Shown here: in pieces, positions 6,303-45,410 of the stretch
Layout: the number at the start of each line of letters is the position of its first letter
How positions within the stretch are numbered: the stretch's first letter is position 1
Virus record (IMG/VR): IMGVR_UViG_3300042542_005394
Location: 49,003 to 113,002 of that record
Source: a virus
Length of the DNA stretch: 64,000 nt
Reading direction: 5' to 3' (one strand)
Program-made: the position numbers and the translations under genes
The notes under the pieces: generated by a model
Databases searched by the model: none
The model's input: the letters and a program-made list of their open reading frames with translations, nothing else
What the model was told of the DNA's origin: nothing

Positions 6303-6702
6303 TTGTTAACCTTCCAGTCCACTGGTTTTCATTTTCATGAAATGGTAATGCTATAAATTTTATCTGATTATTTTCACACCATTCTACTTTTTCACGATCT
6401 CTTTTTTGTGATCTTATAAAGCCCAAAGTATTATGATGGTAAAAGGGTACAAACTTATAATGCTGTTCTCCATGTACTTCTACGCACATCTGAATTAATG
6501 GTAGATAAAAATCTAGAAATAATGTTTCATTCTTCCTAATTACTACAGGCACCTCTTCCAATATTTGCAAAGTTGGAAAGCATAACATGAGTATTGAGCG
6601 AGCTTTGAGATGCAAATTAGATTTATTGGCAATTTTACCCTTAGCCATATTCCCGGTAAGTTGCCATTGAGATACGTTTCCTTCCAAATCTCTTACTATC
6701 AT
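6286..6702 (-). CDS. PD-(D/E)XK endonuclease, Vsr/DUF559-like
   Basis: LDFYLP..CVEVHGEQHY..RDREK. Confidence 0.8.
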   Translation of the reverse strand: MIVRDLEGNVSQWQLTGNMAKGKIANKSNLHLKARSILMLCFPTLQILEEVPVVIRKNETLFLDFYLPLIQMCVEVHGEQHYKFVPFYHHNTLGFIRSQKRDREKVEWCENNQIKFIALPFHENENQWTGRLTNEQNS

Positions 6703-7721: not shown

Positions 7722-8140
7722 TATTCTAAATCCTTCAGTTTTGAAATAATATTATTTTTAGTATTTTGTTGTTTTCCGAATTTAACGTTTGAGCTTCTAT
7801 CTATCTCTAACGTAATTTGTTTATTTTCTGAAGCTATCAATGCTTCCTGTTGTTCTATGATAGCTGGCAGATGGGGCGCTCGCAACGAATATATTCTTTT
7901 TCCAACATCAGTAGCAAGCGCCTTTATAATTGCTTTTGAACTATATTTTTTTAGCAATTTATGAGCAGAGCCTATTTGATTCCTATAAAAAGTTGCCCAT
8001 TTTTTTTCTACCCAAAACCTATAGTGCAGATCTTCTTTTTGGGAGACTGCTTTTCTTTCACAGATGATTTCTGTTATAAATTGAGCTGCTGATACTGGCT
8101 TATTGTTGGAATAACGAGATAGATATGTATCATTTTTCAT
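7721..8140 (-). CDS. Hypothetical protein
   Basis: Coupled ORF; start refined to MKNDTY. Confidence 0.7.
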   Translation of the reverse strand: MKNDTYLSRYSNNKPVSAAQFITEIICERKAVSQKEDLHYRFWVEKKWATFYRNQIGSAHKLLKKYSSKAIIKALATDVGKRIYSLRAPHLPAIIEQQEALIASENKQITLEIDRSSNVKFGKQQNTKNNIISKLKDLE

Positions 8141-11397: not shown

Positions 11398-13047
11398 TTA
11401 TGATTCACAACTACTACACGTTAAAATACTTCTAGCTAATTCCTGAGCAGGATTGCTCGATCTCTGATAATAAAATGTCTTAATTCCATTTTCCCATCCA
11501 AAAATCAATAACTCGCTCACTTCTTTAGCCGGACAGTTTGGAGGTATCATTAAGTTAAGAGATACTGCCTGATCTATATATTTCTGACGTTGTATATTTT
11601 GAATAACAATTTCTTTCTGACTTATTTCGCCAAAAGTCTTAAAGATATTTTTTTCTTCTTGTGTGAGAAAATCTAAATGCTGAACACTACCACCCCTAAC
11701 AAGAATATCTTTCCATACTTCTTCTGTGTCTTGATTTTTGTCCTTTAGGAGTTTTTTAAGGTATGGATTTTTGTATGTGAAACTACCTTTAGCCAGTTTC
11801 TTCACAAAGTAGTTACTATTTAAAGGTTCGATGGATGGACTCACTTGCCCTAAAATAAAACTACTGCTCGTAGTGGGCGCCACAGCGACTGTGGTGACGT
11901 TTCTACGTCCATAGCCCTTGAGCAATTCTGGCTCTCCATACCTATGAGCTAATTCTACAGAAGCCTTGTCTGCCTTAGATTTTATTGTTTTCCATACGTC
12001 TACATTTAAAGCTTTTGCTCCCATAGACTCAAAAGGAACCATCTTAGACTGTAATAATGAATGCCAGCCAAGAACCCCCATACCTAATGCTCTTTGGTTT
12101 TTAGCAAAATTATGAGAAGACTCCATAAATTGACTATTAGCAGTTTTTCTAATGAACTCCTCATTGACTGCATCAAGAAAATATACTAAAGTTTCTATTG
12201 CGTCTGTTTCCTTGATCTCGTCCCAATGCAATAAATTAAGACTAGACAATACACAAACAAAACTATTATCCTCATCAGAAAATAGTGTAATTTCTGAGCA
12301 TAGATTTGATGACTTAATTTTTAGTCTTTTGTCTTTATATGGCTGAGGAGCAACATTGTTAACATTATCGCTAAACATAATATATGGATAGCCTGTCTGA
12401 AATCTCTTTTGAATTATTTTTGCCCAAATTTTTCTTTTTTCTTTGTCTCCATTAACCATATCTTTCATCCACTCATCACCTATGGTAACACCAATACTCA
12501 TATTTTGAATGGGATGACCCTCACTGCGTATTTGTAGAAACTCTTCTATATCAGGATGTTCTACAGGAAGATATGCAGCAAACGAACCTCTACGAGCAGA
12601 GCCTTGGGACACAACCTCAGCAACCTTGTCAAATAACTCCATAAAATGCACAGGACCACTACTTTCTCCACCAACACTTATCTTAGCTCCTCTAGCTCTA
12701 AGATCTCCAAAATAACCACTGGTGCCTCCACCTAATTTGCTCATCATACCAACTTCTGCTACTTTATTCAATATGCCATCCATAGTATCTGGAATATAAG
12801 AATTAAAGCAGGAAACTGGAAGCCCTCTATCGTTGCCAAAATTAGTCCACACTGGGGTTGCTAGACTATAGAAACCTCTACTCATATAGTCTTCGAATTT
12901 GTCAGCAAATCCTTCTGTGTTTAGGATAGCTTGAGCCGTTTCGGCAATTTGTCTAACTCTAGTTTCCGGAGTTATTCCTTCTTTAAGATATCCTCTTTCC
13001 AAGAAAATGCGACTATGAGAGTTAAGCCAGTAATATTTTTTATTCAT
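11398..13047 (-). CDS. nrdA: Ribonucleotide reductase class I alpha subunit (no ATP cone)
   Basis: VSCF, SNLCSE, FVCVL, APTTSSS, TFYY, C-terminal CSSC. Confidence 0.95.
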   Translation of the reverse strand: MNKKYYWLNSHSRIFLERGYLKEGITPETRVRQIAETAQAILNTEGFADKFEDYMSRGFYSLATPVWTNFGNDRGLPVSCFNSYIPDTMDGILNKVAEVGMMSKLGGGTSGYFGDLRARGAKISVGGESSGPVHFMELFDKVAEVVSQGSARRGSFAAYLPVEHPDIEEFLQIRSEGHPIQNMSIGVTIGDEWMKDMVNGDKEKRKIWAKIIQKRFQTGYPYIMFSDNVNNVAPQPYKDKRLKIKSSNLCSEITLFSDEDNSFVCVLSSLNLLHWDEIKETDAIETLVYFLDAVNEEFIRKTANSQFMESSHNFAKNQRALGMGVLGWHSLLQSKMVPFESMGAKALNVDVWKTIKSKADKASVELAHRYGEPELLKGYGRRNVTTVAVAPTTSSSFILGQVSPSIEPLNSNYFVKKLAKGSFTYKNPYLKKLLKDKNQDTEEVWKDILVRGGSVQHLDFLTQEEKNIFKTFGEISQKEIVIQNIQRQKYIDQAVSLNLMIPPNCPAKEVSELLIFGWENGIKTFYYQRSSNPAQELARSILTCSSCES

Positions 13048-14147: not shown

Positions 14148-14960
14148 TTATTTGATTGTGTGTGGAGTTGGAACTCTTTTATCAAAGACCTGATTGTACC
14201 AAAAATGGTATTGATATTTATTACCGTCTCCAACATCAAATAAACATACCGATTGATCAATGCTAGAAACTAATCCTGGCCACATTTCTAAACTCAGTAG
14301 GTGATTGTGCGGCTTATACCAATCATCTTGGAATAGTATATCTGCATCGAACCAAAAAAAGGTACCAGAATAGTGAAAACAACTATTGAAATAGCAGTCT
14401 TTGTCTGTTCTTAAACAACCAATAAAATTATATAATTTAGATTCTATTTTGGGTTTGACAAGATCAAAAAATAAATCAATATTATATTTCCATAATGTAT
14501 TTACCCAACAAGTTACGGCATAATCTTTTTCTGGATGAGAACATCCTTTCCCATGACCAAAAAATACAAAATTCTGTTCTTCATCATTTTTTAATAGGCT
14601 TCGTAATAGCGGAGCAGATTTATCAAAAAAGTGTGACGATTCTTTGGTGGTTGATGAGTTAATACATGGTATGATTATGGTTCTCGGATCATATAATTCA
14701 TCTACAATCTTCTGAAACATAATATTATTATGGAACTCATTATTTGGGCTAGATACTGTTATTATTTTATAACCATTGAAAATATATAAATTTTGTTTTA
14801 ATTTGGCTATGGCATAATGTATTTTTTCATGATTCACACAATGAAGATGAAATATAAAATGATAATTTATATTATTTTGACTATTATCTAACGTTGCAAA
14901 ACTAGTATTTTCTTTTGTATTTTTGCATAAAAATTTAAACAACATGACTTCTACACTCAA
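14148..14960 (-). CDS. Putative glycosyltransferase-like protein
   Basis: FFGHGKG and HYSGTFFW motifs; lies in the glycosylation island. Confidence 0.55.
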   Translation of the reverse strand: MSVEVMLFKFLCKNTKENTSFATLDNSQNNINYHFIFHLHCVNHEKIHYAIAKLKQNLYIFNGYKIITVSSPNNEFHNNIMFQKIVDELYDPRTIIIPCINSSTTKESSHFFDKSAPLLRSLLKNDEEQNFVFFGHGKGCSHPEKDYAVTCWVNTLWKYNIDLFFDLVKPKIESKLYNFIGCLRTDKDCYFNSCFHYSGTFFWFDADILFQDDWYKPHNHLLSLEMWPGLVSSIDQSVCLFDVGDGNKYQYHFWYNQVFDKRVPTPHTIK

Positions 14961-16068
14961 TTAAATTTTTAACCATAATTGTGTAGATATCTAACTTAAA
15001 AGTTCCTGTTTGATTGTTATTTTTTATCATGGTTGGTAACCTAGCTAATAACCCAAAATTATTTTCATTAATTTTATTAGCGTCACATAGTATAAGCACG
15101 CTATCATTTGTTAAAATATTATCTATATTTTCAAAAAAATGTATTTTATTCCGTAAGTTAATTTTTGTATTTTTTTGTTCTTCTTTTAAGTAGTCAACAT
15201 ATAAATTAGACAAATTTTTATGTATATAAATATTATTACACCATGGTTCTATTAGCTCTAATATCTGATCATTACAATTATTTATTGCTATTGATGTCGA
15301 GTATTTAGGTCCTTTGAGTGTTGATCCCCATTTTCTAATAAAATTTCTATTTGACCGATATTCTATTTCTGAAGAAGTATTCATAAATTCATCAGAAAAT
15401 CTTGATGTTTTACTAACAAAATGGTAAGACAAAGCGTCTTTTGATGTAATAAGTTTTAAATTATTTGCTTCTAATCTCCATATTAAGTCAATATCTTCAG
15501 CAAACATTGGGTAAAAAAGAGTATCAAATCCTCCCACTTTTTCAAATGTCTCTTTACTTAAGGCCATAAAAAATGAACACCCTGCTTCTACTTGATCGAG
15601 ATATTCATGTTGATAACTTTCACAAAACTCATAGAACTTATTTGTGTCGATATTACCAACATTGTCACCGAAATTATTTAATACCTTACCAACTGAGGTA
15701 TTATTAAAAATTGGTGGCTCAACAACAGTATAAGAAACGACAGAATTATCATTAAGATGCTTATGTATATTTTCTAGAAATTTTGGACCTACAATCATAT
15801 CATTGTGTAAAAAAACAACGTACTTATTAGTAGATAATGATACTGCTTTATTATATGTTGTTGCTAAGCTGGCGTTTTCATGACTATAGTAAATTTTAAC
15901 ATTACTATCTTTGGTAGCTATTTGTTTTAACCATTTATGTGTATAGTCAGTACTACCATATGATACTAAACATATTTCTGTATCTGGATACAGCTTTCTG
16001 AAAGTTTGGTAAAAATATTTAGTATATTCTAGATTATTTTTAAGACCGACTATTGTTGAAATATTCAT
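14935..16068 (-). CDS. Glycosyltransferase family 2
   Basis: GSTD, YNKAV, FLHNDM, GGFD..F..EDIDL. Confidence 0.9.
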   Translation of the reverse strand: MNISTIVGLKNNLEYTKYFYQTFRKLYPDTEICLVSYGSTDYTHKWLKQIATKDSNVKIYYSHENASLATTYNKAVSLSTNKYVVFLHNDMIVGPKFLENIHKHLNDNSVVSYTVVEPPIFNNTSVGKVLNNFGDNVGNIDTNKFYEFCESYQHEYLDQVEAGCSFFMALSKETFEKVGGFDTLFYPMFAEDIDLIWRLEANNLKLITSKDALSYHFVSKTSRFSDEFMNTSSEIEYRSNRNFIRKWGSTLKGPKYSTSIAINNCNDQILELIEPWCNNIYIHKNLSNLYVDYLKEEQKNTKINLRNKIHFFENIDNILTNDSVLILCDANKINENNFGLLARLPTMIKNNNQTGTFKLDIYTIMVKNLIECRSHVV

Positions 16069-16153
16069 TTTATTATTAGGTTTTTAACTAGATAGTTCAT
16101 TGACTTTTTTTATTATAGAGAAGCATCCAAGTAAAACAAGAATAGGAATATTT

Positions 16154-16528
16154 ATGGATTTTATACAAAAAAAATGGGGATATGAAATTTGGATAGAGAA
16201 TAATAGCTTGTATTGCGGCAAGCATTTACATGTGGTTCCAAATCGCTGGTGTTCAGTACATTATCATAAGAATAAAAAAGAAACTTTTTATGTTATTAGT
16301 GGCACATTAAAGCTACAATACTCTACTTCACTAGATAAAGAAGAATGGAAAACAAATCCCGAAGAACACTTAGTAAAAAGCATCATTTTAGAAAAGGGTC
16401 AATCCTTTACTATTAATCCCATGACAGCGCACAGATTTACTGCTCAATCACATTATCCTTGTGATTTTATAGAGATATCAACATTTCATGAGGATTCTGA
16501 TTCTTATAGAATAATAGAAGCTATATGA
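16154..16528 (+). CDS. Cupin-fold sugar isomerase-like protein
   Basis: KKWGYEIW, SVHYHKNKKETFYV, HRF, EIST; start refined to MDFIQ. Confidence 0.8.
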   Translation: MDFIQKKWGYEIWIENNSLYCGKHLHVVPNRWCSVHYHKNKKETFYVISGTLKLQYSTSLDKEEWKTNPEEHLVKSIILEKGQSFTINPMTAHRFTAQSHYPCDFIEISTFHEDSDSYRIIEAI

Positions 16529-16821
16529 TATACTATGTAGATATTGATAATACAATCTGTTTGACAGAAAATAGTGACTATGACAACAGTAGTCCATTAT
16601 ATGATAGAATCAGAGCAATAAACAACCTATATGACCAAGGACATACAATAGTTTATTGGACAGCGAGAGGGTCTAAAAGTAATAGAGATTGGTCTGAATT
16701 AACTAAAAATCAGTTGGACTTTTGGGGATGCAGAAGACATAATATATTATTTAATAAACCTCATTATGATCTGTATATAGATGATAAATCAATAAATTCA
16801 GAAAGTTTTTTCAATGAATAA
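16525..16821 (+). CDS. Small HAD-superfamily phosphatase
   Basis: DIDNT, WTARG, KP..DLYIDDK. Confidence 0.8.
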   Translation: MIYYVDIDNTICLTENSDYDNSSPLYDRIRAINNLYDQGHTIVYWTARGSKSNRDWSELTKNQLDFWGCRRHNILFNKPHYDLYIDDKSINSESFFNE

Positions 16822-17572
16822 AATTGCTGTGATAGGAGAATCTTGTATAGATGAATATGTTTATGGGATATGCGATAGGGTTTGCCCGGAAGCTGCCGCT
16901 CTGTGTTTCAAAACCAGTGAGGAAAAAAGATCTAATATGGGCATGGCACATAATGTATATAACAATATATTAGCAATGAATACGGATTTGGATGTTACTC
17001 TAATAACAAATAATACTACTATCATTAAAAGAAGATTTATAGACTATAGATATAATACTATAGTATTTAGAGAAGATATCAATGATTCATGTGAGCCTAT
17101 CGATATTAAACAATATGATTTTGACTCATATGATGTTATAGTATTCTCTGACTATTGTAAAGGATTTTTATCTGAAACAAGTATTATTGACATATGTAAA
17201 AAAATTAAAAAATCCTGCTATGTGTTTATAGATACAAAAAAAAAGATTAAAGATTTTATTAGATATGTAAGTTTTTTGAAGATTAATAGCACAGAATTAA
17301 AGCAGAATATTGTTGACATCGAAGATATTAGTAAATATTGTCGGGTAATTGTAACCAAAGGAGAGAATGGAGCTACTCTTTATGAGGGTAGTGTCGTTAA
17401 AAACTATCCAACAAAAAAAATAGAAGTAAGAGATGTTTGTGGAGCAGGGGATACTTTTATGGCTGGTCTGGTGGTTAAGTTCTTGGAAAACAAAGATATT
17501 GATGAAAGTATCAATTATGCTAATTTGTGTTCTTCCGTAGTGGTAGAAAAATTTGGGGTAACCACACCATGA
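16814..17572 (+). CDS. rfaE1: Heptose-7-phosphate kinase (HldE/RfaE domain I, PfkB family)
   Basis: VIGESCIDEY, RVCPEA, SDYCKG, DVCGAGDTF. Confidence 0.88.
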   Translation: MNKIAVIGESCIDEYVYGICDRVCPEAAALCFKTSEEKRSNMGMAHNVYNNILAMNTDLDVTLITNNTTIIKRRFIDYRYNTIVFREDINDSCEPIDIKQYDFDSYDVIVFSDYCKGFLSETSIIDICKKIKKSCYVFIDTKKKIKDFIRYVSFLKINSTELKQNIVDIEDISKYCRVIVTKGENGATLYEGSVVKNYPTKKIEVRDVCGAGDTFMAGLVVKFLENKDIDESINYANLCSSVVVEKFGVTTP

Positions 17573-17970
17573 AAAATATATGGGTCAATGGATGTTTTGA
17601 TATTTTACATGTAGGGCATATTAGACTTTTAAAATATGCTAAGTCTTTAGGAGATAGATTGATAGTTGGTATCGACAGCGATGCTAGAGTCAGTGAGATG
17701 AAGGGTCTAAATAGACCCATTAATTCTCATATATATAGAAAAGAAATGCTTTTGAGTATTAAGTGGGTAGATAATGTTGTGGTTTTTGATTCTGAAATAT
17801 CTCTGATAAAAGCTATTAAAAATCATAGTATATCAGTTATGGTAGTTGGAGATGACTATGTAAATAAAAAAGTAATAGGGTCAGAATATGTAGAATCATT
17901 AATTTATTTTTCAAGGATACCTAATATTTCTACAACAATATTATTAAACAATAATATTACTTCTGATTGA
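17569..17970 (+). CDS. rfaE2: Heptose-1-phosphate adenylyltransferase (HldE/RfaE domain II)
   Basis: NGCFDILHVGH, LIVGIDSD..KG..RPIN, GDDY, ISTT. Confidence 0.9.
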   Translation: MKNIWVNGCFDILHVGHIRLLKYAKSLGDRLIVGIDSDARVSEMKGLNRPINSHIYRKEMLLSIKWVDNVVVFDSEISLIKAIKNHSISVMVVGDDYVNKKVIGSEYVESLIYFSRIPNISTTILLNNNITSD

Positions 17971-18804
17971 TGTTTTATTGACATATTCTAGAATATTATA
18001 TAAATCTGATAAATCTATGTCGTTTATAGTGTATGATTCTATAGATATCTGATTATGATTTTTAGGTTGCCAATTAATAGCAGTTGTAGCACCTGAATAG
18101 AAGGAATAACCATAAAACCCAATAACTGGATGGTTATATGCTGACGCAGCCCATATCATTCCAGTATCAGCCGATATTAAAAATCTACTAGATAACATTA
18201 CTTTAACTGATTCAAAATATGTACCATTAAATTTTGTAGCTCCTTCTATTGTAGAATCATTTGGTCCACCAAGCTGGACAATAGGAAGATTGAATTGCAA
18301 AGCAAATTTTTGAACTTTCTCTAGTATTTTATGCGTTAAATTTTTTGGACTTCCAAAACTAGTAAAAGGAGCTATTGTTATATAATCTTGTCTACATATT
18401 TGTCCAGGAATATTTAATGAGAAGTCCATTTGTTCTTCCGATGGTTCTGGAAGATTGTGCATTAAACAGTTTTCTGTTGTCTGGTGCCTATGTAAATACC
18501 AGTTTATTTCTTTGTGTTTAGCATTTGGATCGAATACATGCAAATTTTTCCCATAGATATCTATGAGATTTTGTATCATGAATACATCTTGCTCTCCTGG
18601 CCAATCATCATATTTATCCCATACGATTATATCGTCTATGTGATCACTATGTAAAAATATTTCTTTACAGTCTGAAAACTTTTTATTAATAGAGTATATG
18701 AGTCTAGACTCTGGATATTTTTGTTTTAAGACTGAGGCCGCTGTTAAACCTATGAACAAATCCCCGTACTGTCCATGATTAAATCCTATAAAAGTTTTTT
18801 TCAT
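17944..18804 (-). CDS. Glycosyltransferase family 9 (heptosyltransferase-like)
   Basis: YGDL, VQLGG, ISADTGMIWAASA. Confidence 0.8.
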   Translation of the reverse strand: MKKTFIGFNHGQYGDLFIGLTAASVLKQKYPESRLIYSINKKFSDCKEIFLHSDHIDDIIVWDKYDDWPGEQDVFMIQNLIDIYGKNLHVFDPNAKHKEINWYLHRHQTTENCLMHNLPEPSEEQMDFSLNIPGQICRQDYITIAPFTSFGSPKNLTHKILEKVQKFALQFNLPIVQLGGPNDSTIEGATKFNGTYFESVKVMLSSRFLISADTGMIWAASAYNHPVIGFYGYSFYSGATTAINWQPKNHNQISIESYTINDIDLSDLYNILEYVNKTSIRSNIIV

Positions 18805-18813
18805 AAAAACTCT

Positions 18814-19350
18814 TCAACTTGATACTTTATTGTATACTGCCATCTCAAATCTGCTTCCAGTAAGATAAAATAAATCAAAAATAGGATATTCTAATCTTAA
18901 TGCTGAACCCTTACTATTAAAATCATCACATAAAATCACTGCTTGTGTTCTATCTATTTTATTAAACTGCCTAAGCATCTCTTGTGGATCATCTGATCCA
19001 TCTAAATATATCAAATCATATGTACTATCAGAGATATGATTATATGCGTCATCATTTAAAAAATTTATTTTCGCATTAATTCCATAAACTAATTTTTTGC
19101 AATTTTCGAGCGCTTGATTATCTATATCTATTATATCTAGTCTACCGCCATATTGTTCTATATATCTAGCCCAAAAAATACTACTCCATCCGTCCCCAAA
19201 TCTGGCTTGATCAGATAAATCTCTAGCTGCTCCTATCTCTAATATATTGACTGGATTATGATTAAACATGTCTAAACAATGTTTAAATATATGATCTCTC
19301 CCAGCTTCTGTTTTTATTAGATGGTCTATGTATTTATTTGCAGTTGTCAT
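18814..19350 (-). CDS. Class I SAM-dependent methyltransferase
   Basis: ILEIG, IDID, DLIYLDG, ILCDD. Confidence 0.8.
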   Translation of the reverse strand: MTTANKYIDHLIKTEAGRDHIFKHCLDMFNHNPVNILEIGAARDLSDQARFGDGWSSIFWARYIEQYGGRLDIIDIDNQALENCKKLVYGINAKINFLNDDAYNHISDSTYDLIYLDGSDDPQEMLRQFNKIDRTQAVILCDDFNSKGSALRLEYPIFDLFYLTGSRFEMAVYNKVSS

Positions 19351-19365
19351 AAGATAGAATAACTT

Positions 19366-19956
19366 TTATTTTGGTGTGTAGACCCCATATATTTCATCAT
19401 CATAGAATATTTGTAAATTATGAGTATCAGATAGAATATCTTGTATAAAATTAGAATTATCAAATTCTTTATTTGGTTTTAGATCTGTTCTTTTATTTTT
19501 TGAACACCATTCGCCATTATTGAGATAGACTCTTAAATCATCAACGAGTATAACGTCTTGGTGATTTTTTCTAAGTTTTTGTATCATTAATAGTTCTTCT
19601 TCTAATGGTAATCTTATTCTGTTAGGTTCATCACTACTATAAGAAGATAAGCCAGCATCAGCACCAGGATAATGAGCATCTAACCAAAAAATAATATTTT
19701 CTTCAATTGTTGGTAATATATCTGACATCGCAGATAGGCTATTATCTAGTTTAATTATTATGTTATTGATATTGTTGAACTTTTTGCTAACATTAGTATA
19801 TAGTTCTTGATTAATTTCTACAGATATTAATTTTTTAAATCCATATCTTTGTGCTGATACTAAACCGTCTCCTTTGTACGTACCTGTTTCAAAAAAGATA
19901 GTCGTATTATATTGTTTGATATATTGTTGTAAATTAAAATAATTAAGAGTACCCAT
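19366..19956 (-). CDS. Methyltransferase-like protein
   Basis: FFETGTYKG, SVEI, FWLDAH, ILVDD. Confidence 0.75.
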   Translation of the reverse strand: MGTLNYFNLQQYIKQYNTTIFFETGTYKGDGLVSAQRYGFKKLISVEINQELYTNVSKKFNNINNIIIKLDNSLSAMSDILPTIEENIIFWLDAHYPGADAGLSSYSSDEPNRIRLPLEEELLMIQKLRKNHQDVILVDDLRVYLNNGEWCSKNKRTDLKPNKEFDNSNFIQDILSDTHNLQIFYDDEIYGVYTPK

Positions 19957-19971
19957 TTGACTATCCTTTAT

Positions 19972-20622
19972 CTAAATATTAACGAATATATGAGGAGGAA
20001 TATTTTTAAATTTTTCTTCTGATTTTGGCCAGAGCATTTTTGAACTATCCCATCCTAAATTACGCAGTGTGTATACTACTTGCACAAAAGCCGCTTGGTG
20101 TATTCTTCTGTCCATAATTTCAAAAGCCATTTGTCGTAGAAAGGTATCAAAATTTTCTGGTGGATAAATTAATCCTGGATAAATAGTATTATGAGTAATA
20201 CTACTATGTGGTATAGTAATATATAAAATTCTTCCAGGCTTTAGGATTTGTTTGATCTCAAACAATAAATTGTATGGGTTGGTTACATGCTCTATGGTTT
20301 CTAAACAAAAGGCAATATCAATTGGTGCATTTTTTTCTAGAAATATTTCTGCAAATTTTGAATCAAGATTGGTAACAAAATATTCGCAAACTTCTGATGC
20401 TGCTTTGTTGTCGTATCCGTCCCATCCATAGAAGGTATTATTTTGATTTTTGGGTAGTCTATTAAATAGCATTCCATACCCGCATCCAAAATCACCAATT
20501 CTTAGATTGTTAAGTTCTTTTAACTTAAAATCTTTAACAAAATAGTCAAGCCTAAGTTGATGACTATTTTCATATACTTCTATAGGCTGTCTATCAAAAA
20601 AATTATAGTAGTTATTATTCAT
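19972..20622 (-). CDS. Class I SAM-dependent methyltransferase
   Basis: DFGCGYG, ETIEHV, LKPG. Confidence 0.88.
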   Translation of the reverse strand: MNNNYYNFFDRQPIEVYENSHQLRLDYFVKDFKLKELNNLRIGDFGCGYGMLFNRLPKNQNNTFYGWDGYDNKAASEVCEYFVTNLDSKFAEIFLEKNAPIDIAFCLETIEHVTNPYNLLFEIKQILKPGRILYITIPHSSITHNTIYPGLIYPPENFDTFLRQMAFEIMDRRIHQAAFVQVVYTLRNLGWDSSKMLWPKSEEKFKNIPPHIFVNI

Positions 20623-21475
20623 GAGTGTAAAATTTATATAAGTTTAGAATATTTTTAGCAATTTGAAACTTAGAAAACCTGTGCTGGATTTGATTACTGC
20701 AATAGAGCATTATATGCTTGTTATATTCTTCAAAATTATTCAATATTTCTTGGTATTTATTTGATATTGATTCTTTGGTAGGATCACAAATGCAAAACTC
20801 TGGACATAATTCGGAATTGGGATTGTCTGAACAAACAATAGGCACCGCTCCGCAAACCATTGCTTCTAAAGCTGTTAATCCTAATCCTTCAAAACTAGAA
20901 GGTAATGGTACAATTTTGGCTCTATTATAGAGTTGATTTAAATTAATATCATTTACCATTCCAAGATTATGGCCAATGCCACCAAATGGGCCGACAGAAA
21001 TAATTTCTTCGAATAATGGCTCAAGCAAGTGTGTTCTTTTAACTGGGTCTGTGGCTCTTCCAACATACAAACAATTTATATCTTTGGTTATAGAAGAGTC
21101 ATAAAAAATATCTTTAATTGGATTATCAATAACATAAGCATCAATACCTATAATTTCATGTAGTTGTTTTTTGACTGGCTCACTAATGCAGGTGACTACC
21201 GACGCATGGGATAATTCATCCTTGAGCTGATCTATTGGGAAACTACTAATGTGCGTAGGAATATCTAACACATTAAATATTTTGAATACGTCATTATCTA
21301 ATGCGCAGTCTTGATAGTCTGGATCTCTCGATGAATAAGGAAAGTTATTGGCATATACAAAATCATACTTATCGGAGGGGCCGACATTGTGACCTAAGCC
21401 AGCAAACCCCTGCATTATACGAGGGACTTGACACCAATATTGTTTAGCTCCGTAAACCTTAATATTCATGAACAT
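20615..21475 (-). CDS. Glycosyltransferase family 4 (GT-B)
   Basis: YVGR..KR, PSSFEGLGLTALEAMVCG. Confidence 0.88.
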   Translation of the reverse strand: MFMNIKVYGAKQYWCQVPRIMQGFAGLGHNVGPSDKYDFVYANNFPYSSRDPDYQDCALDNDVFKIFNVLDIPTHISSFPIDQLKDELSHASVVTCISEPVKKQLHEIIGIDAYVIDNPIKDIFYDSSITKDINCLYVGRATDPVKRTHLLEPLFEEIISVGPFGGIGHNLGMVNDINLNQLYNRAKIVPLPSSFEGLGLTALEAMVCGAVPIVCSDNPNSELCPEFCICDPTKESISNKYQEILNNFEEYNKHIMLYCSNQIQHRFSKFQIAKNILNLYKFYTHE

Positions 21476-22109
21476 TATTTTTTGCCATATTTTTATAGAA
21501 TGAATTTTGACTTCTTTGTTTATTTATGTGTTTTCTATGCAAAATAGCTACTCTACCATCGTCTGAAATAGCGGCACTAGATTTAAATCCTTCTAGGTGC
21601 TCATGTACAAATCCACTCCAGTGTATTAAGTTATTATTTTTGTAAATCCTTGGCTGGTAGTCTGGCCAATTTATCCATCCTTTTTCATTTATTTTCCATG
21701 ACCATTTTTTAATATCCTCTTCAGTTAATCCATCAACAATATTAATACGTGGAAGATAATATAAATCTATATCATTGGAAGCTATCTCTTTTCTTAATGC
21801 TTGAATAGCATCAAAACGCATTTCCTCATCAGCATCAAAATTAAAAATATATGGCTGAGATGCTTGGCTAGTCATATAGTTTTTAAGTTCAGCAAAATTA
21901 TTTTTAAAATGGAAAGTGCTATATTTATTAGAGTATCTCTGGCAAATTTCTTCTATAAGCTTATAATTGTCTGTTTCTTTTTCGGATTCGTCTCTGTATG
22001 TTTGAATAATGACTAGTTCATCATTATCTTTTTTAGCACCATTAAGTAGCGTTATTAGCTTGATAATCTCTTTGGTTTCATTATATACTGTAACACAATA
22101 TGAGATCAT
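21459..22109 (-). CDS. Glycosyltransferase family 2
   Basis: VTVYNE, FDADE, WPDYQPRIY, VHE. Confidence 0.88.
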   Translation of the reverse strand: MISYCVTVYNETKEIIKLITLLNGAKKDNDELVIIQTYRDESEKETDNYKLIEEICQRYSNKYSTFHFKNNFAELKNYMTSQASQPYIFNFDADEEMRFDAIQALRKEIASNDIDLYYLPRINIVDGLTEEDIKKWSWKINEKGWINWPDYQPRIYKNNNLIHWSGFVHEHLEGFKSSAAISDDGRVAILHRKHINKQRSQNSFYKNMAKNNVHEY

Positions 22110-26503: not shown

Positions 26504-28324
26504 TTACTCATCTAAATATAAAGTTGCACTATCCAATAATTTACGATTGTTGATTGGATAAAATTGTTTATAACTTAGATTTCTTTTAGGAAAACCTTTA
26601 GTTGTAGATAACGCAAATAATAAACCAAATGCAGACTGATTTTTCCCGCAATAATAGGGAATACAATTACTACTACCAGAGCAACATTCTCCTGTTGGAG
26701 GATTAGCATTACAGCCCTCATATTGTTTTCTAATAAATTCATCTACACAAGGGCCAGTATTTGGTCCATTATTTAGAGCATTAATAAGTCTATACAACAG
26801 AGCATCAGAATTAGAAAGAAATCCACTAACAGCTAATAAAGAAGGTAAGTCAGGCGAAAGAATGATATTGTTCTCTTGCAAATCTAGTCCTATCCTAGCT
26901 CCAGCAGAAGCAACATTAGATGGACAAAATTTACTTCTACAACCCTTAAAGCTTGGACTGTGATTAAATTTAGTCATTCCTTTAAGATGACTTTCTGTAA
27001 CCAAAAAAGATCCTGGAGGAATAGGTCCCCAGCTAGGCTCTCCTCCACTATTCCAGTCCCCCCAACTATTTGCAATCAAATACACACACTCAGGATACTC
27101 TATTTTTGTATCATCATAGCCTATAATAGAAAAAGTATGATACCAAATTCTATCTGGATAAGCTACGCCGCTAGAATCTCGTGAATTAGGAAATCCTACA
27201 TTAGTCATCCAGACAACACCATATCCATTAAATAGTAAGTCTTTTATTCTATTCATTCTAGTATTATCGTCTCCGCCAATAAAAGATATTGTTTTAAATC
27301 TTTCTATGGCTGTATGATCGTTAACATAATCCGTGGTACCGGGCATTATTTCTGCAGCATTTTTATAGTTATAGTTATTTTTACTTTGAAAATATTTTAA
27401 AAATATATCATCAGTACACGCATAAAAATTAGGACCACTATTATTAATAAAATTACCATATCCTCCATAACTTTTCCTTTTTAGGATTCCAATATGTTTT
27501 AGAGTGGAAAAGTCTATATCCATCATCATTCGTAGTTCGATAATAGTATCTAGGTTAAGTTTGCTATTAGAATTTTTTTGTATGTATGAAAAATATAATC
27601 TATTAGTTTCTGGCGCCCCGCAGCACATTTCTTTATTTTCAACACAGGTTTTAGCCTGACAACATAAACTACCCGGCTCTTCTGGATTACAAGTTTCACA
27701 ACTTACACATTTAGGAGTAGTTTCAGGAGGAAAAACTTTGCAATAAAAGTCGGCTCCTGCCGCTCCTTTCTCTGGATTCTTTATACAGTTAAAGAAGTAC
27801 TCTGTGTCTCCTTCTCTATAAGAGCATCCTGGTGCCTGCTGATTTTGAGCTATTTCCTCCGTTACAATATCTGGTCCTAACATCATTAAACAGTCCGGTA
27901 ATGAGTTGTTACCAAAATGCTCAAGATACTCAGCAGACATGCGACTTTCCCATTTATGATATTCTCTAGTATTCTCAATATCGCATGCTCTGGTAATGTC
28001 GCAAGCATTTCTTACAGCATGAGATGTGCCGCTTCTTGTTGTTGGTTGAATTTCTGTAAAAGCTTCTGCATCTATACGGCTTAAAAATTTATATGGTATT
28101 CCTAACTTTCCTGCTCCCGTATCTTTTATCCCTAAAGGATTTTGCTCAGAAGGTACTATATCAACATAAGGAGCGCCTTCTATACATGGATACTTTAGAT
28201 GTCTCAGAAATCGTATTAAACGAGGTAAATCATACGGAGTACCATTAGCTTCATACATGATTATGGAGTCATAATAACACGGCTCCAGAGTGTACTGCAA
28301 ATATAATTCCTGGGGAGATAGCAT
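26504..28324 (-). CDS. Papain-family (C1) protease homologue lacking the catalytic Cys, with Cys-rich insertions
   Basis: Aligns to the 29594-31612 paralogue (SHAVRNACDITRA vs SHGTRNACDVTRA); WYHTFSIIGYD and ANSWG retained. Confidence 0.8.
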   Translation of the reverse strand: MLSPQELYLQYTLEPCYYDSIIMYEANGTPYDLPRLIRFLRHLKYPCIEGAPYVDIVPSEQNPLGIKDTGAGKLGIPYKFLSRIDAEAFTEIQPTTRSGTSHAVRNACDITRACDIENTREYHKWESRMSAEYLEHFGNNSLPDCLMMLGPDIVTEEIAQNQQAPGCSYREGDTEYFFNCIKNPEKGAAGADFYCKVFPPETTPKCVSCETCNPEEPGSLCCQAKTCVENKEMCCGAPETNRLYFSYIQKNSNSKLNLDTIIELRMMMDIDFSTLKHIGILKRKSYGGYGNFINNSGPNFYACTDDIFLKYFQSKNNYNYKNAAEIMPGTTDYVNDHTAIERFKTISFIGGDDNTRMNRIKDLLFNGYGVVWMTNVGFPNSRDSSGVAYPDRIWYHTFSIIGYDDTKIEYPECVYLIANSWGDWNSGGEPSWGPIPPGSFLVTESHLKGMTKFNHSPSFKGCRSKFCPSNVASAGARIGLDLQENNIILSPDLPSLLAVSGFLSNSDALLYRLINALNNGPNTGPCVDEFIRKQYEGCNANPPTGECCSGSSNCIPYYCGKNQSAFGLLFALSTTKGFPKRNLSYKQFYPINNRKLLDSATLYLDE

Positions 28325-29593: not shown

Positions 29594-31612
29594 TTAGAGA
29601 TAGGTATCAAAGCCGTAATCTGGGAGTTTTTGTAGTGGAAACCCGTCGAATCCACTAAAAGCATACGATCCATTTTGAGAAAGCATACCTTCAGCAACAT
29701 CTGCGTGAATAAGAAACGATCCATCTGGAATTGGTCCCCATTCTGGATGACCACCATCGTTCCATTTGCCCCAGCTATTTTGAACTAGAAATGCTGGTTC
29801 TCCTTGGGTATCATCACATGCTATCCATGCCATGCAATTATGAGATGCTACTCCGTCTACTATATAACTGTGATTGTTTTTAACTTCTAAATTATATACT
29901 TTACCTATATATTTATTAGATTTAATGTTTCTAATAGGATTATATAAATAATTACTATCGTTTTTTAGTTTGGATACAGCATTCTTCAAATTCCAGGCTA
30001 GAGTATAAGAGCTATTATGAGAATTATAAGCAGTATCCCCATGTTTTTGCTCAAATATAGTTGGCTTATAGTCTAAATTAATTAATATATTTCTTAATTG
30101 ATAAATTAATGGTTTATTGCTCATACTGATATATTTGATTTCTTTTCTATAGAAACCATCACCACAAAAAATACCATCTATAATACTTTCTACATCCCAC
30201 CCTTCGGTTAATAAAAATTCTGGTATTTGTCGTTCTGTAGAATAATGACCAAACCAGCTATCAAATGAACGAGCTAATACGGAAGAATCACAGTACACTC
30301 GGATATAGGTTGTGTGTTCTTTAATTCTGATTTTAAGACCCAATATATCAAAAGCTTTTTTTAGTCTAGCTATATAATCTTTTTCTGTAATAGAAAAGGT
30401 AAAACAAATTTTATGATTTTTTACACTATTTCCATCGGCAATATATAGACCAAACATCCAAGCAACATCGTTATTAGGATGATTTAGTTGTTCCGGAATA
30501 TTTTTGGTTTTATTACTAATACCTATATATGGTAATCCTGCGAATGGTTTTGATTGAAATTTTGTTTTTGGAGTAACTAGCCAGTCCGTATCTATAATAT
30601 CTTTTGCTTCCACCCACATTAATTTTCTTTTTTCAACTTTTTGTTTTTGCTTTTTGATAACTAATACCCCGCCATCGGACTCTTCTATGTCTTCATATTC
30701 TTTAATATCTCTTATATTTCTAAAAATTAATATAGGATGCTCTGCTGTTACATTAAAAGAAGGTAATCCCCAAGCTCTAACAGATACCACTTCTCCATCA
30801 TAGTCTTTTTCAAAAACATGACTTACAGAATCGACTTCTCCGATATGATTAAATAGTTTATCTCCTACGTAAAAACTATTGATAGTTTTATTTCCATCGG
30901 GGGTAAAAACTAAAGAATTTGACATATAACAATGAGCCCAACTACCAGATACTTTTGCGAATCCCTTTTTATCTCTAGTATTACTAAATCCATAACTAGA
31001 GCATACGGCTAACCCATAACCATTAGCAAGAGCATCACGAGCTTCTTCTACTGTTCGTATTAGTGAAGCTGTCTTGATCTGGTGATCATTAGAAAGGTCT
31101 AATACCTTATCAGGAAGACCTCTGCCACCCCAACCCGCTCCTAAATTACCATTATATTTACTAAAGTCCACAAAACCATAATTCTTTCTTACCACAATAC
31201 CACCAACCTTACTAACAAATTCAGCTGCTCTGGCACAACTCATGCCCTGTCCACTAAATCCCCTATATCCATAGATAGCCTCTGTTGCACCCCTTGCTGT
31301 CCAATCCTCTCTCTCGTTATGTACATCTATTTCTACTGCTCTTGTAACATCACAAGCGTTTCGTGTTCCATGACTAACACAATCCCCAGTGGTTTGTCTT
31401 TCGTTATAAGGATTTTTATCAAATTTTAACACACTCTTATATGGTGTTGATAGTTTACCCTTACCACTACCACTAATTTTTTTACTAGCATCACCGAATA
31501 GTGGATATTTGGAAGTTTCCATCAAATGATCATATACGTGCTGTTCAAATAAACAACCACTAAAACCATTACGATAATTATCATATAATTCTTTTGGTGT
31601 CATTCTTGCCAT
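29594..31612 (-). CDS. Papain-family (C1) cysteine protease containing an intein
   Basis: QTTGDCVSH (Gln/Cys), WAH|CMAW (His), QNSWG (Asn). Confidence 0.88.
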   Translation of the reverse strand: MARMTPKELYDNYRNGFSGCLFEQHVYDHLMETSKYPLFGDASKKISGSGKGKLSTPYKSVLKFDKNPYNERQTTGDCVSHGTRNACDVTRAVEIDVHNEREDWTARGATEAIYGYRGFSGQGMSCARAAEFVSKVGGIVVRKNYGFVDFSKYNGNLGAGWGGRGLPDKVLDLSNDHQIKTASLIRTVEEARDALANGYGLAVCSSYGFSNTRDKKGFAKVSGSWAHCYMSNSLVFTPDGNKTINSFYVGDKLFNHIGEVDSVSHVFEKDYDGEVVSVRAWGLPSFNVTAEHPILIFRNIRDIKEYEDIEESDGGVLVIKKQKQKVEKRKLMWVEAKDIIDTDWLVTPKTKFQSKPFAGLPYIGISNKTKNIPEQLNHPNNDVAWMFGLYIADGNSVKNHKICFTFSITEKDYIARLKKAFDILGLKIRIKEHTTYIRVYCDSSVLARSFDSWFGHYSTERQIPEFLLTEGWDVESIIDGIFCGDGFYRKEIKYISMSNKPLIYQLRNILINLDYKPTIFEQKHGDTAYNSHNSSYTLAWNLKNAVSKLKNDSNYLYNPIRNIKSNKYIGKVYNLEVKNNHSYIVDGVASHNCMAWIACDDTQGEPAFLVQNSWGKWNDGGHPEWGPIPDGSFLIHADVAEGMLSQNGSYAFSGFDGFPLQKLPDYGFDTYL
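29837..30931 (-). mobile_element. Intein with LAGLIDADG homing endonuclease (365 aa)
   Basis: Starts CYMSNSLV; block B VTAEHP; GLYIADG and GIFCGDG; block F VYNLEV; ends SHN followed by Cys+1. Confidence 0.93.
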
Positions 31613-34008: not shown

Positions 34009-35052
34009 TTATGAGATAACATACAAAGTAGTAGAATTTTTAGTAACAAGAGCGTCGTAATTTGCTTGAGATATACTAACTATATTAGTAATATTAATTG
34101 AATTTGGAACTAGTCCAGTATTACTTGGTACTCCAGCAGAAGTTTGAGTGGTGTTATCTGAGAATGTGATACTACCACTAGCTGGTAATGTTAATGCCCC
34201 ATCTGTGCCAAAAGTCCAGAGATTGGTATTTGAATCGGTGCCGATCACAACATCTCCACCATCTTTTTCAATCTTAACATATTGATCATCATCACCCAAA
34301 TAAATATCAACCGTCGAAGGATCTCCTGCCACAAGATGTACATGACTATGTTCTGAACTAGATATTCCATTATTAGTTACAGTAATAAACTGACCAATGG
34401 GCATAGCATTTTCTTCAAAATCATAATATAAAGCTGGATCATTTTGAGTCTGTTCATTAGTGGATCTTGTGCCATCAACACTTGTTAGTGTAAGAGTAAA
34501 TTCAGAAATAGTACTATTAGCTGGTATTGTCCAAGTAATACTTTCTGCCTCTGGACCGGTTGTACTTACGAAAGTTAGTTTACCAGTTAGTGCTCGACCC
34601 AATGATTGTGGGGTAACTCCAGTACCAGAGATTGTATAGTTTACTGTTCCAAAATAAGACCAGGTTTGTAAAGTAACTATAATAGTAATAGGATTACCAT
34701 ATTCAATATAATTACTAGAACTAATTGCCCAAATAGCTGCGGTTGGACGAATTACTAAACTCTGTCCAGAAGCTGCTGTTGGAGGCATTAAAGATACTGT
34801 ATTATTTGTTTCACTGAATATGCTGCCGCTGGGTAATGTTAAAGAACCATTTCCAGTAAGTATAACTTCTTTATCGTCTTTAATTAATCTGTCTGATGAA
34901 GAACCTACGACTCCTATAGCACTAGTGAGTTCGCTTAAAGTTATTTTTTTAGTAACTCCGCTAACTAATGGACTGTCCATGAATAAAAATATATCATCGC
35001 TACTTAGTGATCCACTACCTGTTGGAAATTCGTTTATTCTTTTTATACTCAT
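34009..35052 (-). CDS. Putative tail fibre/structural protein
   Basis: KRINEFP N-terminus, WTFGTDGALTLP, ISQANYDAL..TLYVI C-terminus. Confidence 0.65.
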   Translation of the reverse strand: MSIKRINEFPTGSGSLSSDDIFLFMDSPLVSGVTKKITLSELTSAIGVVGSSSDRLIKDDKEVILTGNGSLTLPSGSIFSETNNTVSLMPPTAASGQSLVIRPTAAIWAISSSNYIEYGNPITIIVTLQTWSYFGTVNYTISGTGVTPQSLGRALTGKLTFVSTTGPEAESITWTIPANSTISEFTLTLTSVDGTRSTNEQTQNDPALYYDFEENAMPIGQFITVTNNGISSSEHSHVHLVAGDPSTVDIYLGDDDQYVKIEKDGGDVVIGTDSNTNLWTFGTDGALTLPASGSITFSDNTTQTSAGVPSNTGLVPNSINITNIVSISQANYDALVTKNSTTLYVIS

Positions 35053-35053
35053 A

Positions 35054-35275
35054 TTAGCCACCAACCAATGTTTGATCATCAACTAATTGTACAAAAATAC
35101 CGTTATAGAATCTATTACCATATTTACTCTGAATAGAACTTATAGCTGGAGTATTTTTAACATTGGTATTATTAGTATTATGTGTTCCGGTAAAAGTTGT
35201 TGATGTAATCGTTGTACCATTTTTAATAGGTTGACTGTTTTTACTTTTAGCAATATCTGTGAATGGTCTGCTCAT
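35054..35275 (-). CDS. Hypothetical protein
   Basis: GGAGA RBS; operonic. Confidence 0.65.
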   Translation of the reverse strand: MSRPFTDIAKSKNSQPIKNGTTITSTTFTGTHNTNNTNVKNTPAISSIQSKYGNRFYNGIFVQLVDDQTLVGG

Positions 35276-43240: not shown

Positions 43241-44305
43241 CTATTCTTGTATACACCTAACTAATGTATTGGCCGAATTTTCCCAACTATATTGTTCGGC
43301 CGTTGCTAATCCTGCTGGATTTTCTTTTGTTCTATTTTGATACATTTGTCTCATATACCATATAATAAAATCTTTTTCGTTATCTCCAATTTTAGCCCAA
43401 TTTCCTGTGCCATGAAACCATCTATTATCAATAGCAGACTCTGAATCAGATATTTCTATTAAAGAGCAATTATCTTTATTGCAATATTCTGTGTGTGCGG
43501 AATAATTCGTAGCTATTATCGGTTTGTTCATAGACATAGTCTCTAGTAGTTCAAGATTCCAACCCTCCGCTTTAGATATGTAAATACCGCAATCACAATA
43601 ACTCATTATATGAGCTAAATCATTTTGAGTAGGTAATCTAGGAAAAACTCTTATTTTAGATTTTAATTTAGAATTTTGCACCAAATTTAGCCATTGTTTT
43701 TCTTCTTCTTGTTTAAGAAATATATTGTGTGTAACTAACCATAACTCAACCTCATCATTCTGTTCAAAAGCTTTATTAAAGCATTCTATTAAAACATCAT
43801 GAGATTTTCTAATTTCCCATTTTCCAGCTGTCATAAATATATAATTATTTATTTTTCCTTTGTCTTCTGGAGTTCTAGGATAGAATATTGATCTATCTAC
43901 CCCTAAAGGCACCACCTTAACGGGCTTATTAATATTATTTTTTTCTACGATAGATTTTGCCCAATTACTACTAACTATAATAGTATCTGGAAAATTTAAA
44001 TGATGTTTTTCTAGTTCATTAAAAGTGTCAATTTCAAAAAATGGATAAGCAAAGTATTTTCCCCTACCAGGCTTATTTAGCAGATCAAACTGGTGCCAAA
44101 TTTTAACCGCTGGAGCGTCGTATGCTACTGATGCTTGTTTCATTGTGGCGTTATTTATTACTTCTGCATCTTCTCTATTTTCAGGCGTAGCATTTCCAAT
44201 AATAGATAAGCACACATTATTATTTTTAGCTAGTGCTTTTAGTATATGTAAAGAAGCGTGTCCATAACCTGTGCCTCCCATTGGGGCTTGTAGATGTATA
44301 TTCAT
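43241..44305 (-). CDS. Glycosyltransferase family 4
   Basis: TGYG, VPLGVD, GKWEIRK, EGWNLELLETMS. Confidence 0.88.
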   Translation of the reverse strand: MNIHLQAPMGGTGYGHASLHILKALAKNNNVCLSIIGNATPENREDAEVINNATMKQASVAYDAPAVKIWHQFDLLNKPGRGKYFAYPFFEIDTFNELEKHHLNFPDTIIVSSNWAKSIVEKNNINKPVKVVPLGVDRSIFYPRTPEDKGKINNYIFMTAGKWEIRKSHDVLIECFNKAFEQNDEVELWLVTHNIFLKQEEEKQWLNLVQNSKLKSKIRVFPRLPTQNDLAHIMSYCDCGIYISKAEGWNLELLETMSMNKPIIATNYSAHTEYCNKDNCSLIEISDSESAIDNRWFHGTGNWAKIGDNEKDFIIWYMRQMYQNRTKENPAGLATAEQYSWENSANTLVRCIQE

Positions 44306-44309
44306 ATAT

Positions 44310-45410
44310 TTATATTCCTAGTATTGGATTGTGATTATTGTGTATTTTATTAACTCTACAAAATTGTCCACATTTGGACATATATTTTATATTATTGGCT
44401 CCTATATAACAACAACAAGATCTTATTCCTCCAAGAAGTTCTTGTGTTACTTGATCAAGAGTTCCTTTATATGGAACCGTTATTTTAGTACCTTCGCTGG
44501 CTCTATAATTTTTCTTACCGTCCTCGAATAGGTCTTGAGAATGATGAGTACTCATGCCATAGTAGGTGAATCGACCTTTAGATTTTTTCTCAGACCCTAA
44601 TATTTTAGAATAATCTCCTCCAAATTCCCACTCTCCTTCGCACGGTTCACTACCAGAAAAGTACCCGCCTAACATTAAAAAGTCTGCCCCTGCGCATAGT
44701 GCTTTACATACATCTCCAACAGTTTTATGTCCACCATCTGAGCATATTAGTCCTAGTTTTTTAGGTCCGTTTTGGAGTCCATGAGCGACGTAAGAATTTT
44801 CTAAACAAGTTGACAATTGAGGAATTCCACATCCTGTTTGAAAGCGAGTGGTACACGCACTACCTCCTCCCACTCCAACCTTTACAATATCAACTCCACC
44901 ATATATAATTAATTCTTGTGTTGAAGAAGTATTGGTAACATTACCAGCCAGTATAATAGATTCTGGAAACTCGTCCCTTACTTTTTTGCAATATTTAACA
45001 AAAACATCCATATGACCATTGGGTACATCAATGCATATGTTAGGTTGTTTATTAAGTTTATTTTTAAGTTCAAGTAAATGATTTAGGTCGCTTTTTTTAT
45101 AGCCTATAGACACAAAAGTATAATCTATATTTTCTGGGTGTTCTGTAAAATAATTATATAAATCATCCACAGAATGATACTTATGTAAGCACGCTATCAT
45201 TTTGTGTTTAGCTAGAGCCTTTGCCATATCAAAACTACAAAAACTCATATTTGCACACATTACTGGAACACCTGTCCATTTGCGTGAAGAATGATAAAAA
45301 CTAAACGTTCTCTCAAGTTGTATTTCTGATCTACTAGTAAGAGTAGATCGCTGAGGAACTATTAGTACATCATCAAAATCAAGCTTGGTTTCATTGAGAA
45401 TTTTTTGCAT
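44310..45410 (-). CDS. guaC: GMP reductase
   Basis: KLDFDDVLIVP..SRS, KVGVGGGSACTTR, YYGMS, ASEG. Confidence 0.92.
   Translation of the reverse strand: MQKILNETKLDFDDVLIVPQRSTLTSRSEIQLERTFSFYHSSRKWTGVPVMCANMSFCSFDMAKALAKHKMIACLHKYHSVDDLYNYFTEHPENIDYTFVSIGYKKSDLNHLLELKNKLNKQPNICIDVPNGHMDVFVKYCKKVRDEFPESIILAGNVTNTSSTQELIIYGGVDIVKVGVGGGSACTTRFQTGCGIPQLSTCLENSYVAHGLQNGPKKLGLICSDGGHKTVGDVCKALCAGADFLMLGGYFSGSEPCEGEWEFGGDYSKILGSEKKSKGRFTYYGMSTHHSQDLFEDGKKNYRASEGTKITVPYKGTLDQVTQELLGGIRSCCCYIGANNIKYMSKCGQFCRVNKIHNNHNPILGI

Follow-up and report, generated by a model that had tools for sequence, protein, structure and literature searches.

A stretch of 64,000 nucleotides, referred to here as the window and numbered from its first base, closes the 113-kb IMG/VR virus record IMGVR_UViG_3300042542_005394 (positions 49,003 to 113,002, its final 64 kb). 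It contains a minus-strand gene (29594..31612; 672 amino acids and a stop codon) in which an N-extein, an intein and a C-extein share a single open frame. We consider it highly likely that the insert is a genuine, splicing-competent and mobile class 1 intein with a nested monomeric two-motif LAGLIDADG nuclease, inserted directly after the catalytic His of a phage-encoded, distantly papain (C1A)-like peptidase. This reading draws on the anatomy of the intein, its precise insertion, the folds of intein and host, the residues conserved in each, and the distribution of occupied and empty alleles among relatives.

Precision of the insertion

A first-pass annotation, made from the letters of the window, had placed the intein at 29837..30931, and these coordinates are correct to the base: the motifs SWAH|CYMSN and VASHN|CMAW flank a segment of 365 amino acids (aa), residues 228-592 of the precursor. 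The N-extein (aa 1-227, 30932..31612, minus strand) ends in the catalytic His227 (30932..30934, minus strand), which is His228 in the numbering of the intein-free relative P0001, and the C-extein (aa 593-672, 29597..29836, minus strand) starts with the +1 Cys (29834..29836). Deletion of the 365 aa, claimed in the same annotation to restore the protease, yields a 307-aa product, ...GSWAHCMAWIACDD...QNSWG, which reads as natural intein-less alleles do, with identities of up to 90%.

Intein-less alleles and further inteins at this site, for which a search had been suggested, were both found among metagenomic relatives. When the N-extein was compared with shorter proteins, 1,467 of them matched; the best 120 were nearly all 307 or 308 aa long (identity up to 90%). 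Intein-less alleles read ...GSW(A/G)H-CMAW(I/T)ACDD...QNSWGKWNDGG..., and the junction ...GSW(A/G)H|CMAW... is present in over 1,400 of those with 307/308 aa. Set against 175 long matches, the 1,467 short ones indicate that about nine-tenths of the family's 90%-identity clusters are without an intein.

At the DNA level, 68 intein-less loci were retrieved, on viral contigs that reach 244 kb in length. Syntenic loci (L034, L015, L011, L013 and others) align to the window on both sides of the insertion, with a gap of 1,091-1,095 nucleotides (nt) in the query and a contiguous subject. Alignment stops at 6683 and restarts at 7775 of the reverse-complemented region, resulting in a clean 1,095-nt insertion, the limits of which can be placed to within 2-3 nt, since a Cys codon starts both flanks. 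The insertion is in frame, lies at a conserved site and is missing from orthologues, and its removal restores the host. Around the empty site, 48 nt are strongly conserved over 42 loci, with 34-42 of the 48 matching the window flanks, as would be expected of a homing target. The earlier proposal that the peptidase is conserved enough to sustain homing fits this near-invariant DNA, as it does the multiple intein sites of the family described below. An assembly chimera and a chance open frame were both rejected as readings of the insertion.

Contigs assembled from four lake-water runs were short and of low depth; each of the two junctions is crossed by some of them with no mismatches. A diverged contig of run X16, in which 1,140 nt are skipped over the intein region (side 31, likeness under 95), probably represents a related phage that has no intein; as evidence of polymorphism within the same population it is too weak to be counted.

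Anatomy and fold of the intein

The insert had been described as a full LAGLIDADG intein, and profile searches bear this out: the segment matches Pfam Intein_splicing (2.9e-13), LAGLIDADG_3 (1.2e-6, in two stretches) and Hom_end, and the flanks give no match. Pfam, conservation, an AlphaFold2 (AF2) model and Foldseek all support a 365-aa class 1 intein on the minus strand, as are all the features listed here. Its splicing elements comprise Cys1 (30929..30931), the block B sequence T-A-E-H (30737..30748), block F (29852..29899) and the terminal His-Asn (29837..29842), and its C-terminal junction reads ...HSYIVDGVASHN|C. Nested within it is a LAGLIDADG homing-endonuclease domain (approximate limits 29987..30481), recognized by LAGLIDADG_3, Hom_end and a match to I-DmoI. 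The two LAGLIDADG motifs, WMFGLYIADGNS (30425..30460) and IIDGIFCGDGFY (30149..30184), form two helices with the acidic residues Asp166 and Asp258, respectively, as in monomeric two-motif nucleases, whose paired half-domains have the order alpha-beta-beta-alpha-beta-beta-alpha.

Among 23-33 related inteins, Cys1, His65, Asp258/Gly259 and Asn365 are invariant, and Thr62, His364 and the +1 Cys are kept in at least 90%. The first LAGLIDADG motif, GLYIADG, is conserved at G161, Y163, A165 and G167, and the second reads FCGDG. Block A Cys1, block B TxxH, a C-terminal His-Asn followed by Cys+1, and a HINT fold place the element in class 1.

The AF2 model, built on 33 related sequences, has a predicted local distance difference test score (pLDDT) of 92.8. 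Its full-length Foldseek matches are led by TliVMA (1.6e-18, template modelling score (TM) 0.72) and PI-SceI (2e-17), followed by PhoVMA and PI-PfuI, and for the central domain the match is I-DmoI, a monomeric LAGLIDADG enzyme (TM 0.62-0.67 on the target). Like these VMA1-type class 1 inteins (TliVMA 7qsu/7qss, PhoVMA 7qst, PI-SceI 1vde/1lws, PI-PfuI 1dq3), the window intein has a HINT domain split by a two-motif LAGLIDADG nuclease, together with Cys1, block-B TxxH, C-terminal His-Asn and Cys+1 (Foldseek E 1.6e-18 to 1e-12, TM up to 0.72). Unlike them, it is a compact 365 aa, has Asn in block F (VYNLEV), shows no detectable sequence similarity to the solved chains (phmmer of the intein against PDB sequences gave no match), and resides in a phage cysteine peptidase rather than an ATPase or polymerase. 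Its G+C content is 29%, vs. 38-44% in the exteins.

A bacterial intein-like (BIL) element and a pretoxin or toxin HINT domain were rejected as identities for the insert, given the nuclease, the invariant active-site insertion and the +1 Cys; the PT-HINT match of the intein is only 0.0055, below the cut-off of that model. Cassettes of those kinds have a HINT domain but no nuclease, occupy variable sites in secreted or toxin proteins, and mostly do without a nucleophile at +1. A PF14890 scan of the 113-kb record found a single intein, that of the peptidase. The replication genes, noted earlier as intein-free, are so: DnaB (3951..5438) and NrdA (11398..13047) contain no intein domains, and RecA (open reading frame (ORF) 6699..7721) has its normal length.

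That the insertion fails to splice and has broken the gene, the function of the peptidase being lost or covered otherwise, is very improbable. The splicing residues are all intact, the frame is open over 672 codons, and the exteins retain the catalytic residues and an identity of 85-90% to intein-less alleles. A protein identical to the precursor (P0121) is recorded from 9 contigs, the longest of 174,903 bp, and a sequencing-run search found the same sequence in many lake-water metagenome runs of 2020-2024, among which no RNA runs were listed. Nothing specific speaks for a broken gene; a paralogue does lie 1.3 kb downstream, but it is without the nucleophile Cys.

The host peptidase

The host had been called a papain-like protease, with the intein directly after its catalytic His. 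Both descriptions stand: by fold it is modelled as a distant papain (C1A)-like cysteine peptidase of predicted activity (Z 20.6 to xylellain) with conserved Gln73, Cys78, His228 and Asn248, and the insertion follows the conserved catalytic His. Across 42 aligned intein-less homologues, with identities as low as 32%, C78 and H228 are invariant, and Q73, N248, S249 and W250 occur in at least 90%. The oxyanion Gln73 (31394..31396) and the predicted nucleophile Cys78 (31379..31381) lie in the N-extein, which is supported by this conservation, the profile and the model, and the Asn-Ser-Trp-Gly motif (29768..29779) lies in the C-extein, all on the minus strand.

A profile of the 42-homologue alignment, compared with a PDB sequence set, retrieved papain-family enzymes only (caricain 3.4e-6), placing the His on caricain His159 and superposing the NSWG motifs. 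In the AF2 model of P0001 (pLDDT 93.6), a long helix begins exactly at C78. Foldseek with this model returned xylellain (4.9e-9) and cathepsins at the top, with a probability of 1.0 to many C1A enzymes. A VIA search, which is independent of Foldseek, gave Z scores of 20.6 for xylellain, 19.3 for procathepsin B1 and 18.8 for pro-Der p 1; the scores range from 20.6 to 15 for C1A enzymes, vs. 11 for C1B and at most 10.7 for other clan-CA families. The papain fold, with its helical L domain and beta-barrel R domain, and the order Gln, Cys, His, Asn, with the His and Asn-Ser-Trp-Gly motifs, are those of peptidase family C1. Cys78 is the predicted equivalent of papain Cys25, as judged from its invariance, a Gln five residues upstream and its position at a helix N-terminus.

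Xylellain (Xylella fastidiosa, PDB 3ois) and C1A zymogens (procathepsin B, pro-Der p 1 and procaricain) share with the host the fold (Z 20.6-17.6, ~230-250 aligned residues, root-mean-square deviation ~3.1-3.6), the Gln...Cys...His...Asn-Ser-Trp-Gly order and motifs, and a pro-region overlay starting from model residues 5-15. In contrast, the window peptidase is only 12-16% identical to them and has no evident signal peptide. Its N-terminal ~70 residues (P0001 5-70; window ~31403..31600) overlay part of the pro-region in the C1A zymogen structures (procathepsin B1, pro-Der p 1 and procaricain), an overlay of the model that hints at a built-in pro-segment-like element.

The peptidase family is essentially viral. 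Its ESM Atlas neighbours fall in clusters that are 85-100% viruses, one of them auto-named 'Peptidase C1A...', and a P0001 search of GTDB genomes gave one match, a contig of a metagenome-assembled genome. A role of the peptidase in envelope breakdown is possible because five common endolysin families (Phage_lysozyme, Amidase_2, SLT, Peptidase_M15_4 and Peptidase_M23; only these five were tried) had no match in the 113-kb record, which is an estimated 82% complete. This negative does not show that the peptidase is a lysin, and processing of virion proteins is equally open. Given the neighbouring small ORFs described below, several with hydrophobic stretches, a protease-based lysis module is conceivable.

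Intein insertion sites across the family

Junction mapping over the longer relatives and 50%-identity representatives showed what the first-pass annotation had overlooked: its site is one of at least five in the family. Site a (GD|C...N|CVSH), directly before the catalytic Cys, is occupied in about 87 sampled relatives (among P0122-P0240; e.g. P0122, P0126 and P0140). Here the catalytic Cys doubles as the +1 nucleophile of the intein, and several intein lineages are present, with at least four intein N-terminal types and nine mini-inteins (mini-inteins of 133-173 aa). Site b (W-x-H|C...HN|CM), that of the window intein, has 23 examples, including mini-inteins of 162 and 230 aa; site b2 (H-x-M|C...N|C(W/F); P0189, P0207 and P0323) lies two residues past it. 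At the Asn motif, site c1 (NSWG|C...GN|SW) has 8 examples, e.g. P0132, and site c2 (QN|C...GQ|SWG) lies directly after the catalytic Asn. The c2 pattern search gave false positives, P0191, P0193 and P0197 alone being confirmed by eye.

The c1 and c2 inteins are homologous end to end, sit three residues apart and are both followed by Ser-Trp; those at c2 terminate in Gln, not Asn. From these sequences, the two sites look like the outcome of a small site shift within one intein lineage. Site-a and site-b inteins are only 24% identical. Two inteins occur together in P0164, P0193, P0196, P0231, P0250, P0257, P0281 and P0320. Some members of the family are labelled 'intein/homing endonuclease' by the automatic annotation of the Joint Genome Institute.

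The position that follows the catalytic His varies among the intein-free close relatives (P0001-P0120): 71 have Cys there, 45 Ala and 3 Ser, and farther out in the family Ala is the most frequent. Because this residue is polymorphic in intein-free relatives, the enzyme does not need the +1 Cys, and Cys after His may mark alleles that are receptive to the site-b intein or formerly held it.

A C1 peptidase had been thought an unusual intein host. Two large intein surveys agree: the protease hosts that they list are ClpP and LonB, none being of papain type (PMC4760082, PMC5050341), and a full-text literature search found no papers on inteins in papain-like peptidases. Chlamydomonas eugametos chloroplast ClpP and archaeal LonB are likewise proteases that host inteins, but they are serine or ATP-dependent proteases of cells or organelles, neither papain-type nor phage (PMC4760082, PMC5050341). 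Closer in pattern are Prp8, with inteins at 7 sites (PMC6805012), and mycobacterial DnaB, with two inteins (PMC6195587), each a single protein invaded independently at several critical positions; some peptidase alleles also hold two inteins together. The peptidase differs from both in being a small hydrolase with sites on each catalytic motif (Cys, His and Asn-Ser-Trp-Gly), known so far from uncultured phages only.

With this finding, the intein hosts, dominated by ATPases, replication and packaging proteins, come to include a small hydrolase: a papain-type cysteine peptidase from uncultured freshwater phages. The density of insertion sites is unusual, with at least five sites and every catalytic motif hit. 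The family is a compact natural system for asking why inteins settle on active sites, and it suits the study of site shifts by a few residues, as at the Asn-motif sites with homologous inteins, and of whether the +1 Cys/Ala polymorphism marks receptive or formerly occupied alleles. On the practical side, the family supplies proteases that are naturally caged by inteins, along with several new LAGLIDADG nucleases whose target is defined. By itself, the finding shows no new regulatory principle.

Splicing, homing and alternative readings

The gene would be translated as a 672-aa precursor, in which the 365 residues would part the catalytic His from the beta-strand that it begins and from the Asn-Ser-Trp-Gly motif. 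Because the intein separates the His from its strand and from NSWG, the active site should not be able to form, and on these structural grounds the precursor is very probably inactive until splicing. Self-excision would proceed by an N-S acyl shift at Cys1, trans-thioesterification to Cys+1, cyclisation of Asn365 and an S-N shift, and would yield the native peptidase of 307 aa and, as a separate protein, the 365-aa endonuclease. During co-infection, the endonuclease would cut the conserved empty site (...GGTAGTTGGGGTCAT|TGTATGGCTTGGATAGCATGTGAT...) of intein-less phage genomes, and repair would copy the intein in. The intein would then persist because its target DNA encodes an active site unable to mutate away, and not for any service to the phage.

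Several points weigh against this account. We infer splicing and nuclease activity, as we do the activity of the peptidase, and homing is read from protein identities only. Block F has Asn (VYNLEV) where many class 1 inteins have Asp; this Asn is probably tolerated because it is invariant in the intein lineage. On the side of the host, Pfam Peptidase_C1 (PF00112) had no match at E≤10 in five intein-less members and none in the window exteins, and exteins and intein-less alleles had no match in Pfam, PHROG and NCBIfam. Because the curated Pfam model fails, we call the peptidase C1A-like and do not file it as a member of Peptidase_C1. The hidden Markov model alignment around Cys78 is also offset by about six residues.

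Identities of intein and extein are incongruent between relatives: 93% vs. 85% for P0121/P0133, and 70% vs. 88% for P0121/P0128. Within the intein, conservation is highest in the nuclease domain, and both observations fit ongoing homing. Taken together, the roughly 10:1 excess of intein-free clusters, the mini-inteins, the unrelated inteins at other catalytic motifs and the low G+C of the intein also fit a homing cycle. All the closer relatives of the intein that were found (32-93% identical) belong to this peptidase family, at site b where the junction is definable; beyond them, similarity is at most 28%, in unrelated hosts.

An intein search of viral contigs gave no related locus, and a degenerate junction pattern found only two site-b-like loci in IMG/VR, L075 (a site-b allele, 45% identical) and L074. 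In the latter (IMGVR_UViG_3300025030_001126, 6748..8064, minus strand), a HINT-like segment 21% identical to the precursor ends in the ...HN|CMAW DNA pattern in what is seemingly another context.

The rarity of the lineage by this junction pattern, and the mini-inteins that show the path taken at the same site in the family, would suit a decaying passenger, that is, an intein that splices but has a dead endonuclease and is inherited vertically only, heading towards a mini-intein or loss. We regard this as unlikely: the acidic residues are kept in both LAGLIDADG motifs, conservation is higher in the nuclease domain than in the splicing domain, and intein identities of 93% vs. extein identities of 85% in some pairs argue for recent transfer.

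The first-pass annotation had also suggested that the intein acts as a timing or redox switch. Conditional splicing, through a Cys1-Cys+1 disulfide, another oxidised thiol or metals, would delay or gate the activation of a potentially harmful protease, as in a zymogen without a propeptide. Cys at both position 1 and +1 in the window intein is compatible with such a switch, as are an insertion that must inactivate the enzyme and the age of the site-b lineage in the family, with inteins down to 32-49% identity at the same site. Conditional splicing itself is documented in M. smegmatis DnaB, whose intein is an oxidative-stress sensor (PMC6195587), and in P. horikoshii RadA (PMC5790916).

No observation made here supports timing or redox control, and the population pattern makes a co-opted switch improbable, at about the level of the decaying passenger. 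Most alleles of the same phage lineage, and about nine-tenths of clusters, are intein-less and so need no switch. The pairing of Cys1 with Cys+1 is generic, no other intein chemistry being as common, and empty alleles vary at the +1 position, as seen above. Unrelated inteins at other catalytic motifs, some of them mini or paired, and the intein/extein incongruence are the signature of selfish elements invading conserved DNA. The intein thus looks like an optional selfish passenger, not a built-in switch.

A broader form of the idea, in which splicing has been taken over to activate a zymogen that lacks a propeptide and inteins at the Cys, His or Asn motif silence a dangerous protease until thiol-dependent (redox- or time-dependent) splicing, is in our estimate slightly less probable again. 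If this is true, phages with and without the intein would differ in their timing of lysis or maturation.

Genomic setting and a nucleophile-less paralogue

An intein-free, 606-aa paralogue of the peptidase (26504..28324, minus strand), homologous to both extein halves (E 4e-15 and 6e-11), is encoded 1.3 kb downstream of the peptidase gene, a synteny that is kept in L034. By-eye comparison of the translations shows Gly at the position of the nucleophile Cys (…TTRSGTSHAVRNACD… vs. …QTTGDCVSHGTRNACD… in the peptidase). The paralogue keeps the His and the NSWG motif and carries large Cys-rich insertions; judging from its sequence, it is probably a pseudo-peptidase.

DNA searches found no match to the window among GenBank phages, and a protein search found no GenBank phage encoding the peptidase. 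The window has a G+C content of ~34%, and nearly all of its genes are on the minus strand. The peptidase gene has tail-fibre-like genes on one side (Phage_tail_C at 34009..35082) and a run of small ORFs on the other, several of which have hydrophobic stretches as judged by eye. A 1,284-aa ORF lies downstream of the peptidase gene. Elsewhere in the window, an IMPDH/GMP-reductase-like gene, several glycosyltransferases (GT2 and GT4) and a dCMP deaminase occur at 43241..45410 and 14148..22109; such auxiliary metabolic and glycosylation genes are typical of large aquatic phages.

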